Positions 8,853 through 40,575 of a stretch of DNA of 44,605 bases are shown one piece after another; position 1 is the stretch's first letter; every line of letters starts with the position of its first letter. The notes beneath the pieces are model-generated. The model did no database searches, had not been told where the DNA came from, and saw only the letters and a list, made by a program, of their open reading frames with translations. Source of the stretch: Shigella phage DS8. The position numbers and the translations under genes were made by a program. The stretch lies in the sequence record MK759854. The stretch is one strand, 5' to 3'.

Positions 8853-12653
<3,801 letters not shown>

Positions 12654-17246: not shown

Positions 17247-17683
17247 CCCATATCAAAAGGCAAGCCAAAATACGTCAACACTGCAATCTTTATCTGGGCG
17301 AGTCCACACGCCACAGCAGAGAACGCGCCAGCGCTGGCGCTATCGTTGAGAAACGGTATCTGTCCTGGTTGCCATTTGCTAAGCGTTGAATCGTGGCGCT
17401 TCAACTCTATCGTCGCTTTATGCCAATCACCACCAGGAGTCAGGATTATCACATCAGACACCCCTGACCTGACACCTTTCCTTGCGCGCGATGCCAGATG
17501 CTGCACTGAGTTGCTTTTAGTCTCCTGAGATGGATGGAACCACAGCACATCAGGAAACCGATAATCCATCCACCACTTGAACGCTATCAAGTCTGAATCC
17601 TCATGCGGACACTCGCCACGGTAACCATCATCAAAAATTAATACCTTGTCACTCAGCTCATGCTGCTTGAATCGCTTTTTCAC
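17243..17683 (-). CDS. VRR-NUC domain nuclease
   Basis: 146 aa; GTG start with AGGAG RBS 6 nt upstream; segment DVIILTPGGDWHKATIELKRHDSTLSKWQ fits the VRR-NUC pattern; typical partner of phage helicases. Confidence 0.55.
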   Translation of the reverse strand: MKKRFKQHELSDKVLIFDDGYRGECPHEDSDLIAFKWWMDYRFPDVLWFHPSQETKSNSVQHLASRARKGVRSGVSDVIILTPGGDWHKATIELKRHDSTLSKWQPGQIPFLNDSASAGAFSAVACGLAQIKIAVLTYFGLPFDMG

Positions 17684-19604
17684 TATTCTCTCCTGTAAAA
17701 TCTTTTCTGTGGATTATGTCTCGGCCTTTATCGTTAATACGATGTGTGATGCGTTTTGGTGCTTTAATCAACCCAGCATACATCATGAACTGCTTGGCGT
17801 TCTGGCATTTCAGGATTTTCCCCGCCATTGACTTATCATCAAGGTGAGGAAAGATAGCCTTCGCCTTGAACATGTTTTTCATGTGAGTTGCGCCGCCGTA
17901 TGGATAGAAAACCTCATTAGCCCATCCTTCCTTTCCATCACAACGATTAATCCAGTAGCGATACAAAATACCTTCTCCATCCTTCGTTAACTGGACTTTG
18001 AAATCCATAACATCAGCCCACTCATTATCCGTATACGCACGCTCATTCAGTGCCGCATTCGGGTCGCGCAAAACGTGATCGCAATGTCGGCAATAACGAG
18101 CAGTCGGGTCGTTTTTAGTGCCGCAACCATCATCAAAAATCCTGATGCCGTGCTTGTCAAAACCGCAACGGATATAACTGAAAAACTCTTCGCAACGACC
18201 ATCTGGCGACAATGCATCTTTGCCAATGCAGCGGCGCGCATATGGGCTGTTCATTGTTCCGCATTTCGGGCACGGAACTTGTTCACCACTGCGTTTTGAG
18301 CGTTGCGCTTCAGCTTCTTCAAGAATCGGGTCTTCATATAGCTGACCAAGCTCAAACATCGTTCCTGAGAAATCCAGAACCAGATGATCTTCTTTATGAT
18401 ACCCGGCATCAATTTGCTCTTTCTTCAGCAGGCGCATTCCGCGACCAAGAAGCTGGACAAGGAGAGTTAGCGACATTATTTTTCGCAATATTACAGACGT
18501 ATCCCATAGCGGTATGTTTACGCCGGTCGTCAGGCAACCAATTTGGAAAACATATTTAATCTTGCCAGTGTATGCGTCTTTTAATGCCTTGCGTCTGGCT
18601 TTCATGCCCATATCCTCGGTGACGATAGCATAACTTCCTTCGGGTAAATATTTAGCCGCTTCCTGACAGTGTTTTTTACCAGCGCATGTAATAAGCACTC
18701 CGTTCCTGTTTTTAGTCAACTCCATAACCTTGAGCATGATTTTCTGCGTTAGTGTTCCTTGCTCAAGAATTTCTTTCTGCATCTGCTTGAGCTGCTCGGC
18801 AGTAAAATCCTGCGTGCCGTCAACATCTGAACCATGGAAGTTATGCAAGTCATATTTCAAATCATCAACATCATGAAGACCAAAGATTGTTGGCACAACA
18901 AAACCGCGATCTACCATGTACTTTGTATCAATGTTTATTATTTCATTTTTCCAGTACGCACCTTTCATTGATTCAGTACCACGGAATGGGCTACCGGTGA
19001 ATCCAATTGTTATCATTTCATGCCCATATCTTGCCTTGCAGCGCCTGTTAAGTTCAGTAAGTATTACGCCATATTGTGTTGTTGGATTATCACTAATAAT
19101 ATCCTGCCATGGAGCTTGGTGGGACTCATCGATCAGGCAAAATCTTGGGGTAAAATCACTCAATCCACCTTTCTTGACGTCACCATTTGATTCATCTTTT
19201 TTATCAAAAAGTGCGTTAGCGATTGATCCTTCAGTACCGCATATAATAGGGTATGCTGTACTTTTCCTGCCAAGAGATGCGCTATAAAGAGAGTTTTTTA
19301 CACCACACTCCCACATCATTTCAGCATTCTGCTCAGCTATCTCGCCCTGCCTTGAGATTACAAGGCCATCCCACCCCATATCCTGAAATCTACTGCAAAG
19401 CATTGAAATCATCACGGTCTTTCCTGATGAAACAGACGCTGTAACATAGCTTGGTTCAGGTTTCTTGCCAAAATTACGAATAACCTCAGCGCACTTTGCG
19501 TAAACAAGCCATTGGTAATCATACGGCTCTATGGAACCTATTTTTATTGATTGCTTTAATCTATCTATATCAATCTCTGAAATCATTTTGTCTATTTTGT
19601 GCAT
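17658..19604 (-). CDS. superfamily 2 DNA helicase with C-terminal zinc-ribbon region
   Basis: 648 aa; Walker A SSGKT, motif II LIDESHQ, TGSPFR, motif VI LLGRGMRL; C-terminal CPKCG...CRHCDH cysteine clusters. Confidence 0.8.
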   Translation of the reverse strand: MHKIDKMISEIDIDRLKQSIKIGSIEPYDYQWLVYAKCAEVIRNFGKKPEPSYVTASVSSGKTVMISMLCSRFQDMGWDGLVISRQGEIAEQNAEMMWECGVKNSLYSASLGRKSTAYPIICGTEGSIANALFDKKDESNGDVKKGGLSDFTPRFCLIDESHQAPWQDIISDNPTTQYGVILTELNRRCKARYGHEMITIGFTGSPFRGTESMKGAYWKNEIINIDTKYMVDRGFVVPTIFGLHDVDDLKYDLHNFHGSDVDGTQDFTAEQLKQMQKEILEQGTLTQKIMLKVMELTKNRNGVLITCAGKKHCQEAAKYLPEGSYAIVTEDMGMKARRKALKDAYTGKIKYVFQIGCLTTGVNIPLWDTSVILRKIMSLTLLVQLLGRGMRLLKKEQIDAGYHKEDHLVLDFSGTMFELGQLYEDPILEEAEAQRSKRSGEQVPCPKCGTMNSPYARRCIGKDALSPDGRCEEFFSYIRCGFDKHGIRIFDDGCGTKNDPTARYCRHCDHVLRDPNAALNERAYTDNEWADVMDFKVQLTKDGEGILYRYWINRCDGKEGWANEVFYPYGGATHMKNMFKAKAIFPHLDDKSMAGKILKCQNAKQFMMYAGLIKAPKRITHRINDKGRDIIHRKDFTGENSEKAIQAA

Positions 19605-21743: not shown

Positions 21744-22160
21744 TTATTCCTTGAACTCTGGCGCTTCAGTCCAGAAGGCTACATTTCGCAGAGACTTACC
21801 CGTGTGATTGCACCAGTATATTCCTGAGTCATCATACTTGGCAGTAACCTTGACGCGATCAGCATCAATAATAACAACCTCCTGTCCATATTTAGGGTCG
21901 AAAAGGCGCGCATCCTTCCAGTCAGCAATCTCATTAAGGGAAAGAAGAACATATCCGGGAAGATAAGCGCCGACATCAGCAATGTGAACTATGGTTCTCT
22001 CCGTTCTCTCTCCAGTGTAGTCTCCATTCCACTCATAAAGAATAATCGTGTCTCCAACCTTAAAATCACGATCGTTCTTTCTTAGTTCCGCCTTCTTGTG
22101 TCCGGTAACTACAGGCCAGAAGTGTTCAGGTAAGATTTTTAGTTCGTGTGTTTTGCTCAT
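21744..22160 (-). CDS. DUF3850/ASCH-like domain protein
   Basis: N-terminal HELKILPEHFWPVVTGHKKAELRKNDRDFKVGDTIIL matches the DUF3850 (ASCH-like) pattern as I recall it; ATG 22160 with GAGG RBS. Confidence 0.5.
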   Translation of the reverse strand: MSKTHELKILPEHFWPVVTGHKKAELRKNDRDFKVGDTIILYEWNGDYTGERTERTIVHIADVGAYLPGYVLLSLNEIADWKDARLFDPKYGQEVVIIDADRVKVTAKYDDSGIYWCNHTGKSLRNVAFWTEAPEFKE

Positions 22161-26757: not shown

Positions 26758-27204
26758 ATGGCTAATCCAAACCCTGTCATGAAATTTTCCTCTGAATACC
26801 AGCCTGCTGGTAGAGGATTAAGCTACAGAAACAGGCTTATTGAAGCATTAAAGCGCTGCGGGCTTGGAGAAGAGGAGTTCCTTGACGCATTCATCAGAAC
26901 CTCAATCAAGATGACTGAGGAAAACCAGACTCAAGGCGTACAAATGCTGAAGGAAATATTCCTGCGCATCAGCCCAGTGCAAAAAAGCATGGCACCTCCG
27001 GTTAATTTTAAATACCGCAAAGATGCTACTCCAGTTGAGCAGATAGAGGACGTCATTCAATCTGTCTCCAGTGGTGAGCTTCCAATTGACGTGGCGTCTC
27101 AGGTTGTATCTATGATTAAGGTTGGCCTTGACGTGAAAGAATTAACCGAACTCGCCGCTCGCCTTGAGCGACTGGAAAAATTACTGGAGCAGCGGAATGC
27201 GTGA
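26758..27204 (+). CDS. putative terminase small subunit
   Basis: 148 aa directly upstream of the large terminase; N-terminal MANPNP...PAGRG resembles small-terminase N-termini; C-terminal coiled-coil-like segment. Confidence 0.5.
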   Translation: MANPNPVMKFSSEYQPAGRGLSYRNRLIEALKRCGLGEEEFLDAFIRTSIKMTEENQTQGVQMLKEIFLRISPVQKSMAPPVNFKYRKDATPVEQIEDVIQSVSSGELPIDVASQVVSMIKVGLDVKELTELAARLERLEKLLEQRNA

Positions 27205-27355
27205 TGTTGTTACGTGGTGCTTTGTGGTATCTATCGCTATGAGCATGATTAGCGTCATTATGCCATCTGGAGATTTTGCTGGTAACATATTCGCATTTAT
27301 GTTCTGGGTATCTGGATGCGTTATCGCTTGGGGTCGGATTCACTATGGCTCGTAA
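27197..27355 (+). CDS. small hydrophobic protein overlapping TerS/TerL junction, hypothetical
   Basis: 52-aa ORF; ATG overlaps TerS stop; GGAG RBS; may not be expressed. Confidence 0.25.
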   Translation: MRDVVTWCFVVSIAMSMISVIMPSGDFAGNIFAFMFWVSGCVIAWGRIHYGS

Positions 27356-28769
27356 ACGCCTCTCCGCGCTGGCAATCGAAAAGCTGGAGGCGCAGATTGA
27401 TGATGCAATGACAGATGTCGCTGAGTCTGCCACCTTTGGTATCTGCGACATGCAGAAGAACGTCATTAAGCGGTTAAGGATGACTGCTACTGGCGTTGAT
27501 GATGTGACCAATGCAACCACTCATGCCGACCACCTGATTCCAGCAAAACTGGAGCGCCTGCTTTATCCGAAGCGTTTTAAGTTTGTCTACGGTGGGCGTG
27601 GGTCAGGGAAGACGAGAACGATTATCACTATCCTTACTGAGCGAGCAAGGTTTCGACCTGACCGCTTTGCCTGCTTTCGTGAGATTCAGCAATCCATTGA
27701 AGACTCAAGTTATCAGGAATTGTGCGACGAAATAGCGCGCAAGGGTGAATCGGCAGAGTTTCGCGTTATCAACAACGAGATAACGCACAAGAAGACAAAA
27801 GCGAAGTTTCGCTTCAAGGGGCTGTATCGCAATCAGACAACCGTTAAGGGGTTTGCTGGCATTACCGTCGGTTGGGTAGAGGAAGCGGAGAACGTCAGCC
27901 AGACGAGCTGGGATATTCTGGTTCCCACCATCCGCGCCGCTAATTCCGAGTTGTGGTGCTCATTCAACCCCAATAAGGAAACAGACCCAACATGGAAAAA
28001 CTGGATTGCCCCATATCACTCACAGATGGTTGATGGCATATTCGAAAACGATGAAATTCTGATTATCGAATGTAACTATTCAGACAACCCGTGGTTCTGG
28101 GACACTCCACTGCCGTCCGCTATGGAGCAAATAAAGCGAACTGATTACGACCGTTATCGCTGGATTTGGATGGGAGCATTCAACAAGCGCAGCGACGAGC
28201 AGGTCTTTGGCGGTAAGTGGCACATTGATAACTTTGAGGTTAAGTCTGAATGGCATGGGCCATACTTCGGGATGGACTTCGGGTTTTCCACAGATCCTAC
28301 CGCAATGGTAGAGGTTTACATCGAAGAGTTACCAGGTGGGCGGCGCAACATTTATATTAATCGCGAATACGGAAAGGTCGGGCTTGAGATTACCGATACG
28401 CCAGCCGCAATGGAGCAATCATTCCCTATGGCTAAACGTGCGCGATGGTATGCCGACTGTGCTCGTCCTGAAACCATCAGCCACATCAAGCGTTCTGGCT
28501 TCGATATTCACCCGTGCACGAAATGGCCAGGTAGCGTTGAGGATGGCGTAACGTGGTTGCGCGGCTGCGACAGCATCATCATCCATGAGCGATGCAAGGA
28601 AATGCAGAATGAGGCGGCAATGTACAGCTACAAGGTTGATAAGCTGACAGGGAATGTGCTGACTGATATTGTCGATGCATATAACCATTACTGGGATGCT
28701 GTTCGCTACGCACTCAATGACCACATCGTACAGCGCGGCAGTGGAATGCTAATACGGCGCAGGCGATAA
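27345..28769 (+). CDS. terminase large subunit
   Basis: Walker A KFVYGGRGSGKT, Walker B-like ITVGWVEEAE, C-terminal nuclease-type motifs (MDFGFSTDPTAMV, HYWDAVRYAL); ATG 27345 in frame with a longer TTG-initiated ORF. Confidence 0.9.
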   Translation: MARKRLSALAIEKLEAQIDDAMTDVAESATFGICDMQKNVIKRLRMTATGVDDVTNATTHADHLIPAKLERLLYPKRFKFVYGGRGSGKTRTIITILTERARFRPDRFACFREIQQSIEDSSYQELCDEIARKGESAEFRVINNEITHKKTKAKFRFKGLYRNQTTVKGFAGITVGWVEEAENVSQTSWDILVPTIRAANSELWCSFNPNKETDPTWKNWIAPYHSQMVDGIFENDEILIIECNYSDNPWFWDTPLPSAMEQIKRTDYDRYRWIWMGAFNKRSDEQVFGGKWHIDNFEVKSEWHGPYFGMDFGFSTDPTAMVEVYIEELPGGRRNIYINREYGKVGLEITDTPAAMEQSFPMAKRARWYADCARPETISHIKRSGFDIHPCTKWPGSVEDGVTWLRGCDSIIIHERCKEMQNEAAMYSYKVDKLTGNVLTDIVDAYNHYWDAVRYALNDHIVQRGSGMLIRRRR

Positions 28770-35920: not shown

Positions 35921-35946
35921 ATTTACTACTCCTTTTCGAAATTTAT

Positions 35947-36000
35947 TATTGACGAATCTACGTCACTTAGTCAATACTGTTGGTGTAGAATGATTCTACC
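35947..36000. promoter_or_regulatory. divergent control region: TTGACGAATCTACGTCAC and palindrome GTAGAA-TGA-TTCTAC
   Basis: Motif copies read directly; sits between the leftward (35920) and rightward (36024) operons. Confidence 0.4.
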
Positions 36001-36023
36001 ACAACGGAAAAGGTGATGTGGAA

Positions 36024-36221: not shown

Positions 36222-36472
36222 AGATGAAGGTTATCTGTGCGTTGAGCACGTTGTTATTAAATTCTACGGGAGAAATTATAGATGGCGCATGACGAGTTGT
36301 ACGAAGAATCGTTAATCCAGCGACTGAATGAAGTTGAGCGAACTCGAGAATGGCTGGAGTGCGAATTGCGATAGGTGCGCAACCGTCTGCAACGTAAGCG
36401 CAGTCAACAGAAGGATGTTATCGACTGGTCTGGTGATACGCCTAAATTTAACAACATTGGAGAATGGTTGAA

Positions 36473-36694
36473 ATGAGAAAGTTCAGCACGTTAGTTGACT
36501 TGATTTTCGCTGACATCAGCGAGTCCAACGCCAGAAACAAGAAGTCAAAAAATCAGCGGCAGGATATTACGTTTCGCACACTGCTTAAAAAATCAATGCG
36601 CAGCAAAAAGGAATGGAGATACAGGCGCGACCGAGTGCTGATAAGACTGTGCAAGTTAAACATGAATAAGATACTTAAGGATATGACAAAATGA
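36473..36694 (+). CDS. small basic protein, hypothetical
   Basis: ATG 36473 with GGAG RBS; Lys/Arg-rich. Confidence 0.4.
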   Translation: MRKFSTLVDLIFADISESNARNKKSKNQRQDITFRTLLKKSMRSKKEWRYRRDRVLIRLCKLNMNKILKDMTK

Positions 36695-36936
36695 GCGCAC
36701 CACATATGCCGATGATGAATGACGATGGGTTGCTGGAGTGTGATAATTGCGGCAGCCACGAAGTTAAATTATATAACGATGATGGTATGTATTTCGCCAT
36801 GTGTGAGTGCGGATGCTCAAGTGATGTCCACGTAACGAAGTTGGCTGCGGCCACCCAATGGAACACAAGAGGTGGACACCTCTACGCCGCTGATGACTTC
36901 AATCAGGCGGCAGAGGAGCGTGATTATGGACTATAA
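36691..36936 (+). CDS. zinc-ribbon protein resembling Lar-family restriction alleviation proteins
   Basis: 81 aa; CDNCG ... CECGC cysteine pairs followed by AAATQWNTRG, reminiscent of the Lar-family C-terminal A..WN.R signature (from memory). Confidence 0.4.
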   Translation: MSAPHMPMMNDDGLLECDNCGSHEVKLYNDDGMYFAMCECGCSSDVHVTKLAAATQWNTRGGHLYAADDFNQAAEERDYGL

Positions 36937-37414
36937 ATCACAAATCATGCGCGTGATTGTCAATCACCCTGGCGCAACGCGAGCATACATTGAAAAGCAT
37001 TGCGGCGGAAAGCATTCAAGCACCACAACACATCGCCTACATGAGATGCTGGCACTTGGATTCATTCGGCGCGAGAAGTCAGTGATTCGTGGCGGCAAAT
37101 GGCAGTATAAATATTTCATCTCTGATGATGCAGCCGGTATTGATGATGCGATTAAGTGCCATTTGCTTGATAACTCTGGTGCAGAAGTGAAAGAAATCAG
37201 CGCCGCCACTGGCATTGATTATCGCATCGTGAAAAGCCGCATTCGCATCATGTTTCATAACGGAGATGTAACGCGAAGCTATGACCATCATAAGAAGCTG
37301 TGGCGTTACTCATGGCAGGAGCATGAGGTTAACGTCGGCAATCTGTTTAATTCACTTCTTCGCAATGCAAGGGGTCGTCATGGGAAAAGCCAAGCGCAAG
37401 AAGCAAGAGTATGA
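36926..37414 (+). CDS. putative DNA-binding protein (winged-helix-like repeats)
   Basis: ATG 36926 with GAGGAG RBS; two segments with HTH-like character. Confidence 0.4.
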   Translation: MDYKSQIMRVIVNHPGATRAYIEKHCGGKHSSTTTHRLHEMLALGFIRREKSVIRGGKWQYKYFISDDAAGIDDAIKCHLLDNSGAEVKEISAATGIDYRIVKSRIRIMFHNGDVTRSYDHHKKLWRYSWQEHEVNVGNLFNSLLRNARGRHGKSQAQEARV

Positions 37415-37556
37415 GCCGCTGCCGCCATGCGAAATGTCAGGAATGCCGCAGCATGAGGATGTAATCCTCACCGAGGCGGAGTGGCGAAAAGTGGCAAGGG
37501 TGCAAATCATGTTCCGCAAACTTGCTGAGGATGTACTAAATGAGATGGGCTATTAA
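37380..37556 (+). CDS. hypothetical protein
   Basis: ATG 37380 with AAGGGG RBS. Confidence 0.35.
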   Translation: MGKAKRKKQEYEPLPPCEMSGMPQHEDVILTEAEWRKVARVQIMFRKLAEDVLNEMGY

Positions 37557-37773
37557 GCATAAATCAGGAAGAACTCTGTTTGTGACATCAGATGAGTTTA
37601 TTGCCAATAACCGTAAAAAGATGGGGTGGACAGTGGAGGAAATTGAATGTGACCACGAGTGGGTTAGTAGCGGTGGATGGCCTTACATTCATTATACTTG
37701 CATGTGGTGTGACGAGTATGGATGGTCTGTAAATCTAGAAGGCGATGATGAGGACTTAGAGAATGACGAGTAG
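37540..37773 (+). CDS. hypothetical protein (Cys/His-containing, acidic C-terminus)
   Basis: 77-aa ORF. Confidence 0.4.
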   Translation: MRWAIKHKSGRTLFVTSDEFIANNRKKMGWTVEEIECDHEWVSSGGWPYIHYTCMWCDEYGWSVNLEGDDEDLENDE

Positions 37774-38035
37774 AGAGAAGTTTGAAGAATGGGTTAAGGA
37801 AGAAACAGGATTTGATTTGTGGCGCACGGAATATCCAATGACTGAATGGGATAACCAGCAGTACAAATGTCATCAAACAAACCTTGCATGGATGGCATGG
37901 CAGGCATCGCGCGCAGCAATTGAGATTGAATTGCCAGGTTCATTCCGTGAGTCTTATCTAAGTTCAAATATGGTCACTGATGAGCAGGAAACAATTGAAC
38001 TCATCGAATCGCAAGGCTTAAAGGTGAAAAAATGA
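37763..38035 (+). CDS. hypothetical protein
   Basis: 90-aa ORF. Confidence 0.4.
   Translation: MTSREKFEEWVKEETGFDLWRTEYPMTEWDNQQYKCHQTNLAWMAWQASRAAIEIELPGSFRESYLSSNMVTDEQETIELIESQGLKVKK

Positions 38036-38695: not shown

Positions 38696-40575
<1,880 letters not shown>

Follow-up and report, generated by a model that had tools for sequence, protein, structure and literature searches.

The open reading frame of 81 codons at positions 36691-36936 of Shigella phage DS8 (MK759854; the entire stretch of 44,605 nt is referred to as the window) is a real gene and more than a chance ORF, and it is under purifying selection in its frame. Judged by its sequence, the encoded protein genuinely belongs to the Lar zinc-ribbon superfamily, as part of a divergent subfamily. 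The protein has conserved ends that frame a hypervariable core, a pattern of which no description was found in the literature searched. An anti-restriction role is a reasonable proposal by analogy with one distant characterised relative. The gene and its surroundings are as follows.

36691-36936, + strand, stop codon included: coding sequence of the Lar-family zinc-ribbon protein, 81 aa (ORF list, profile matches, hhalign, purifying selection)
36677-36681, + strand: Shine-Dalgarno-like AAGGA, read directly from the sequence, 9 nt 5' of the ATG
36473-36694, + strand: upstream gene, DUF7301, phrog_1785, of which the stop overlaps the start of the Lar-like gene
36926-37414, + strand: downstream gene, MarR-like winged-helix protein, phrog_1687 (E 2e-57)
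35921-36017, no strand assigned: divergent intergenic region, each strand of which carries promoter-like hexamer pairs (consensus matches only)

The coding sequence runs from ATG to TAA, exactly as the initial annotation had placed it, and specifies the protein MSAPHMPMMNDDGLLECDNCGSHEVKLYNDDGMYFAMCECGCSSDVHVTKLAAATQWNTRGGHLYAADDFNQAAEERDYGL. Its ATG shares bases with the stop codon of the upstream gene (ATGA), and its own stop and the downstream ATG at 36926 overlap, by 11 nt; the same layout is annotated in phage Bas80. Among the six-frame ORFs of the window, it is the only one matching the cysteine-knuckle/WNxR pattern, and it was the sole significant hit of an HMM of short Lar-family proteins (E 1.8e-16; next ORF, E 0.035). 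The motif scan and the HMM search revealed no second Lar-like gene in the window. Such a gene was looked for because two Lar-like genes were reported for a relative, Salmonella phage vB_StyS_KFSST1, one of them syntenic with that of the window and the other, of about 62 aa, located elsewhere and having no counterpart in the window (PMC12965234).

The resemblance to Lar that had been proposed from the letters of the sequence was upheld by a profile match and by homology to the founding member, the score being slightly too low for formal acceptance: Pfam PF14354 (Lar_restr_allev) matched with 28.0 bits (E 2.6e-6) over profile positions 3-57 of 58, which is 0.6 bits under the gathering score of 28.6 bits. 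PHROG 599 ('Lar-like') was matched at E 2.6e-10. NCBIfam TIGR03655 (anti_R_Lar) gave 24.7 bits (E 2.1e-5), below its 39.6-bit cut-off, and the protein is therefore not to be filed in that narrower subfamily. BLASTP against the founding member, Rac Lar/RalR of E. coli K-12 (b1348, 64 aa), yielded 31 % identity over 54 aa (E 3e-5) with the knuckle cysteines and WNxR aligned, and hhalign of a profile of 32 subfamily members against RalR gave a probability of 97.7 % (E 2.4e-12). PF14354 was matched by all 32 subfamily members at E ≤ 0.01 (best E 2.3e-13), and a precomputed PF14354 hit was available for 30 of the 31 database homologues. Over the 50-residue zinc ribbon, identity to this sole characterised member is 27-31 %. 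The Lar family counts 6697 or more cluster representatives, and many of these have ribbons in tandem (two to five per protein). Long Lar-containing proteins showed no informative fusions, only repeated Lar ribbons and generic zinc-ribbon overlaps, and literature searches yielded neither a functional study of a Lar-family protein besides RalR nor one of a Lar mechanism.

The protein had also been described as having two cysteine pairs followed by AAATQWNTR. The latter stretch is present as residues 52-60 and the first pair is a CxxC (C17/C20), but the second is a CxCxC (C38/C40/C42) and not a CxxC. This second knuckle, C38-E-C40-G-C42, offers three candidate ligands and is one residue short with respect to the CxxC present in most relatives, one residue having been lost in this allele class. 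The zinc ribbon, for which metal binding is a prediction, is followed by a helix ending in WNxR, as in other members of the family. In the AlphaFold2 model, residues 11-60 have a pLDDT > 88, with two strands (25-30, 33-38) preceding a helix (50-58); a C-terminal helix at 67-78 has a pLDDT < 50. The top match among predicted viral structures was a 'Restriction alleviation protein' (probability 1.00, target TM 0.77, E only 0.012). A sequence search of the PDB returned nothing below E 0.1, and Foldseek against the PDB gave generic zinc-ribbon, ribosomal and initiation-factor matches, none at E ≤ 0.001.

The window is that of a Skatevirus-like siphovirus. It has about 90 % nucleotide identity to siphoviruses of 45-48 kb from Salmonella, E. 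coli and Klebsiella, such as Escherichia phages C1 and S192, Salmonella phage Vi II-E1 and the BASEL phages Bas77-81, the last of which were placed in or near Skatevirus by their authors (PMC11990801). Among the orthologues, Bas80_0028 of Escherichia phage ChristineMuster is the closest (93.8 % protein identity). As this protein and its orthologues in Akira, STGO-35-1, IME207 and other phages already carry the label 'Lar-like restriction alleviation protein' in GenBank, the identification is not new; one record has 'primase zinc-binding domain' instead, and many list a hypothetical protein. The Skatevirus-like orthologues (PHROG 599; Bas80 and the Salmonella phages Akira, STGO-35-1 and IME207) have the same position, length and conserved ends. 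Orthologues of the same allele class are 84-94 % identical, whereas the core cassettes of other clade members look unrelated (40-62 % identity overall). The copy in the window has CDNC at the first knuckle where the Skatevirus-like orthologues have CPFC, and A66 where they have T. The Lar-like gene was found in 200 phage records, against about 205 for the DUF2213 head protein (60 % identity or more), and is thus close to core in this clade, of which it occurs in about 90 %; the downstream MarR-like gene was found in 154 records. Accessory content varies among these close relatives (Bas80 coordinates compared: 17608-18405, 27203-28078 and 22064-22137). The DNA methyltransferase (Bas80_0043) and endonuclease (Bas80_0063) of Bas80 have no homologue in the window, and Bas80 has a tRNA-Met, whereas a tRNA scan of the whole window gave nothing.

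A codon alignment was made of 55 distinct genes from 57 syntenic loci in viral contigs (17-51 kb, nearly all 45-50 kb). It divides the protein into the following parts.

36709-36750, + strand: conserved N-terminal segment, residues 7-20, P-M-M-N-D-x-G-L-L-E-C-x-x-C (entropy, pS/pN)
36751-36858, + strand: hypervariable zinc-ribbon core, residues 21-56 (entropy, allele classes, identity trough)
36802-36816, + strand: second knuckle C38/C40/C42, inside the hypervariable core
36859-36870, + strand: WNTR motif, residues 57-60, the Lar-family hallmark WNxR, aligning to WNKR of RalR
36871-36933, + strand: subfamily-specific acidic C-terminal tail, residues 61-81, GGHLYAADDFNQAAEERDYGL, conserved and outside the Pfam domain

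Column entropy in residues 7-20 is about 0-1.7 bits, and at most 1.1 everywhere except at residue 12; pS is 0.70 and pN 0.11 over the 55 distinct genes. In the core, which consists of a beta-hairpin, the second knuckle, a loop and the start of the helix, entropy reaches 2-3.3 bits at most positions. W57, N58 and R60 are invariant in all 55 sequences, as are G62, L64, Y65, D69, E76, R77 and L81 in the tail, for which a dN/dS of about 0.2 was obtained (pS 0.43, pN 0.13). The near-invariant stretches are thus PMMNDxGLLECPFC (7-20) and WNTRnGHLYTADDFNQAAEERDYGL (57-81), and an ending resembling 'WNTRnG+L+T...EE.D' is present in a few other short family members. Overlap with the downstream gene does not explain the conservation of the tail, since only the last 11 nt are shared and the synonymous sites of the tail have diverged.

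Nucleotide identity across the loci drops to 0.38 at 36771-36800, as compared to 0.80-0.82 at the gene ends and 0.6-0.85 in the flanking 700 nt, so that the trough is confined to the core. At 60 % identity, 20 allele classes of the core can be told apart. N-terminal type and tail type are in strict linkage, which gives two backbone lineages, 'HMP/FNQ' and 'MKP/YKQ'; as three of the core classes were found in both lineages, cores have been exchanged between them. Within classes, pooled dN/dS is lowest in the N-terminus (0.07), intermediate in the tail (0.16) and highest in the core (0.24), and the core of the window's own allele class has a dN/dS of 0.07 at a pS of 0.51. Positive selection on the core was considered and rejected: within-class dN/dS ranges from 0.07 to 0.43, with no evidence of values above 1. 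Between classes, synonymous divergence has reached saturation (pS 0.75). Read from these sequences, the diversity of the core is that of old, discrete and individually constrained alleles combined with exchange, a pattern that a protein engaged in conflict with a varying target in the host would be expected to show.

The gene had further been assigned to an early rightward operon. The rightward operon agrees with the map: same-strand genes with overlapping or closely spaced ends extend from 36018 to about 38500, downstream of the divergent region 35921-36017, which is a candidate start of this small-gene cluster. 'Early' is a guess, as a promoter/terminator scan of the region gave counts no higher than those in shuffled sequence and such a scan cannot establish the timing of expression. 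No terminator was recognisable between the cluster and the same-strand head genes; the cluster runs on into the DUF2213 head gene at about 38.7 kb, beyond which synteny with Bas80 places the genes for head decoration and capsid. In the 57 related loci, the Lar-like and MarR-like genes are nearly always there, unlike the DUF7301 gene at 36473-36694, which aligns in about half of them (occupancy about 0.5). The other neighbours are small proteins of no assigned function. None of the neighbouring genes could be linked to restriction-modification, and PADLOC gave no match.

Some other observations were made in and around the cluster. Residues 63-135 of the MarR-like protein have a weaker match to a 'Ren-like exclusion protein' (phrog_142, E 6e-7). 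Two positions upstream of the Lar-like gene, at 36282-36476 (+ strand), the homologue of Bas80_0026 (64 aa, 92 % identical) has an in-frame stop at 36372-36374 (E31 in Bas80) that leaves pieces of 30 and 33 codons and may be a genuine nonsense mutation or a sequencing error. At 37540-38035 (+ strand), two adjacent ORFs of 77 and 90 aa overlap by 11 nt; the first matches profile positions 1-34 of phrog_343 and the second positions 37-125. Bas80 has a single 134-aa gene at that place, of which only the first 36 residues match the window; the region looks like a split or mosaic gene. Just past the cluster, 38696-40108 (+ strand) encodes a protein of 470 aa (phrog_760, weak DUF2213 match); most relatives list it as hypothetical, and one as 'prohead core protein serine protease'. 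With 98.7 % identity in Bas77 and Bas81, it is far better conserved than the small genes preceding it.

Plating data are available for several carriers of the gene. The BASEL phages with orthologues were described as 'markedly sensitive to RM systems' (PMC11990801). According to the raw data of that study, Bas80, with one EcoKI site, had an efficiency of plating (EOP) on EcoKI of 0.2, 0.083 and 0.042, and with three EcoCFT_I sites an EOP of 1.3e-3, 2.2e-4 and 6.4e-4 on that system; Bas78 and Bas79, with one EcoKI site each, gave about 0.02-0.1, the range for Bas77-80 (one site) being 0.02-0.2, and Bas81, with two sites, gave 6e-4 to 1.8e-3 (PMC11990801). On EcoCFT_I, the carriers had an EOP of 1.4e-4 to 1.5e-2, and of about 1e-3 or lower in the case of Bas77-80 (PMC11990801). 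EcoKI restriction of the carriers thus rises with the number of sites, there is no sign of strong protection, and the plating data limit the size of any Lar-like protective effect. Lambda ral+ is reportedly also strongly restricted by EcoKI, Ral and Lar being said to alleviate restriction only partially (Loenen and Murray 1986; King and Murray 1995); the plating data, therefore, do not refute a partial effect of the Ral/Lar type.

The window has a single EcoKI site (AACN6GTGC), at 10037-10049, where 7.2 ± 2.7 were expected from dinucleotide-preserving shuffles. EcoBI sites were not depleted (16 vs 10.7 ± 3.3 expected), and Bas77-81 have one or two EcoKI sites. This suggests, from site counts, that avoidance specific to the EcoKI sequence, rather than an inhibitor, limits the damage done by EcoKI-like enzymes.

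Lar was reportedly defined genetically by King and Murray in 1995, as a function by which EcoKI restriction is alleviated and modification enhanced. Rac Lar and RalR are one protein, which is now annotated as 'endodeoxyribonuclease toxin'. Later work described it as the toxin in a type I toxin-antitoxin pair, with a DNase activity that is non-specific and depends on Mg2+/Ca2+, and reported SOS filamentation (Guo et al. 2014; PMC4041452). The Lar-like protein and RalR are both small, single-domain proteins encoded by phage DNA, and in the zinc-ribbon family to which they belong the CxxC, the second cysteine knuckle, the helix and WNxR of the two align. The Lar-like protein differs from RalR in its conserved acidic tail of 21 residues and its extended N-terminus, both absent from RalR, in the CxCxC of its second knuckle and in its score under the TIGR03655 cut-off. 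The genetic contexts also differ: the Lar-like gene lies between the DUF7301 and MarR-like genes of a virulent-type siphovirus, whereas ralR is located beside recET in a lambdoid prophage.

Ral of phage lambda, which partially alleviates restriction by the EcoKI family (type IA) and stimulates de novo methylation, is likewise a small phage protein, and the phenotype proposed for the Lar-like protein would, by analogy, be that of Ral. The two are unrelated in sequence, Ral not being a Lar-type zinc ribbon, and the Ral family (lambda, P22, phi21) was absent among the Pfam matches at E up to 10 and among the PHROG matches. Ocr of T7 and ArdA, both large DNA mimics of acidic character, block the enzyme nearly completely. 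As is proposed for the Lar-like protein, they are a counter-measure to type I restriction-modification carried by a phage or mobile element, and the tail of the Lar-like protein is also acidic; it differs from them in being a zinc ribbon with a short tail and in that its carriers remain restricted. Guo et al. also treat Ral and RalR as unrelated (PMC4041452).

A partial, Ral/Lar-like action on a type IA restriction-modification enzyme of the EcoKI kind is possible and falls only somewhat short of probable; it is proposed by analogy. The small zinc-ribbon protein would be cytoplasmic and be translated together with its neighbours from the rightward small-gene cluster. Like Lar, it would act on the type I restriction-modification enzyme of the host, partly lowering restriction and raising de novo methylation, by which more of the escaping genomes and of their progeny would become modified; an outright block of the enzyme as by Ocr would not be expected. 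The conserved surface, formed by the N-terminal PMMNDxGLLECPFCG, WNTR and the acidic tail GHLYTADDFNQAAEERDYGL, may carry the common activity or bind a common partner, and the swappable hypervariable core may set which variant of the host enzyme is recognised. A more specific version, in which the Lar-type ribbon is a modular specificity determinant with a constant 'effector' surface and an exchangeable core of at least 20 allele classes, is unlikely, albeit worth consideration; each core class would then recognise its own variant of a defence enzyme, be it type I restriction-modification or another polymorphic system.

Other explanations have to be set against such a partial action on restriction. 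That the ORF arose by chance or is a decaying remnant without function is hardly credible, even if it has only 81 codons, the second knuckle is atypical in this allele and a small gene nearby (36282-36476) is interrupted by a stop; it is effectively refuted by the conservation data, that is, by strong purifying selection and synteny in 57 viral contigs and 200 phage records, and the Shine-Dalgarno site, the overlapping start and stop codons and the confident fold prediction also argue against it. The double identity of Rac Lar raises the question whether the protein is a small Mg2+/Ca2+-dependent DNase like RalR, with alleviation as an indirect result of damage-triggered, ClpXP-dependent degradation of HsdR. 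Passages in two papers do describe ClpXP-dependent alleviation of EcoKI induced by DNA damage (PMC4231737, PMC11109961), and the reported DNase activity and SOS filamentation of RalR, together with the inactivity of its K52Q variant, would fit such a route (PMC4041452). Changes that reduce RalR toxicity were found at positions 14, 37, 39, 49, 51 and 52 (PMC4041452); the residues there, C14, T37, Y39, R49, N51 and K52, align to S22, V46, V48, Q56, N58 and T59 of the Lar-like protein, in which only N51 is kept, as the invariant N58. R49 thus aligns to a variable Q, C14 to S, and the essential K52 to a T that is found in 54 of the 55 subfamily sequences. As most of these residues are changed, a DNase like RalR is not favoured. 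Moreover, a non-specific DNase would not spare the unmodified DNA of the phage itself, Pfam and Foldseek revealed neither a nuclease fold nor a nuclease motif, and an Rfam scan of the whole window gave no family at gathering score and hence no recognisable RalA-like antisense RNA. This explanation is quite improbable.

A weightier objection is that the 'Lar-like' label has been over-propagated and that the ribbon is a scaffold for a host or phage target unconnected with type I restriction, which could be the co-translated MarR-like regulator, a DNA-transaction protein or a further defence system. Although doubtful, this is a serious possibility and nearly as likely as the partial action on restriction. 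The carriers are sensitive to both type I systems tested and also to type II and III systems; the family is large and architecturally diverse (6697 representatives), with one member characterised; the most conserved part of the subfamily is the tail at 61-81, which RalR lacks and which does not belong to the Lar domain; the near-core status of the gene in the clade is unusual for an accessory anti-restriction moron; and the TIGR03655 cut-off was failed. The homology to Lar/RalR is, however, statistically solid and includes the WNxR motif, which is important for RalR activity, while PADLOC, the PDB sequence search and Foldseek against the PDB offered no alternative function (none significant). 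The discrete, exchanged and specificity-like alleles also fit an anti-defence role.

In conclusion, the value of the finding for annotation is small, the label being already public, and caution about the label is the useful result. It rests on one prototype, studied in 1995 and later re-described as a DNase toxin. As type I systems still restrict the carriers 5- to 5000-fold, the name should not be equated with evasion of type I restriction by the phage, a caution that is relevant to the choice of therapeutic or biocontrol phages. All that is added to the existing label is the arrangement of conserved ends around a hypervariable, exchangeable core. If the idea of allele classes is true, the clade would be a tractable panel for determining what Lar-type ribbons bind and how their specificity is encoded, and would provide a natural allelic series for the mapping of Lar target recognition. 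Among its members are the culturable E. coli K-12 phages Bas77-81, which would be a sensible system in which to test Lar-type ribbons.
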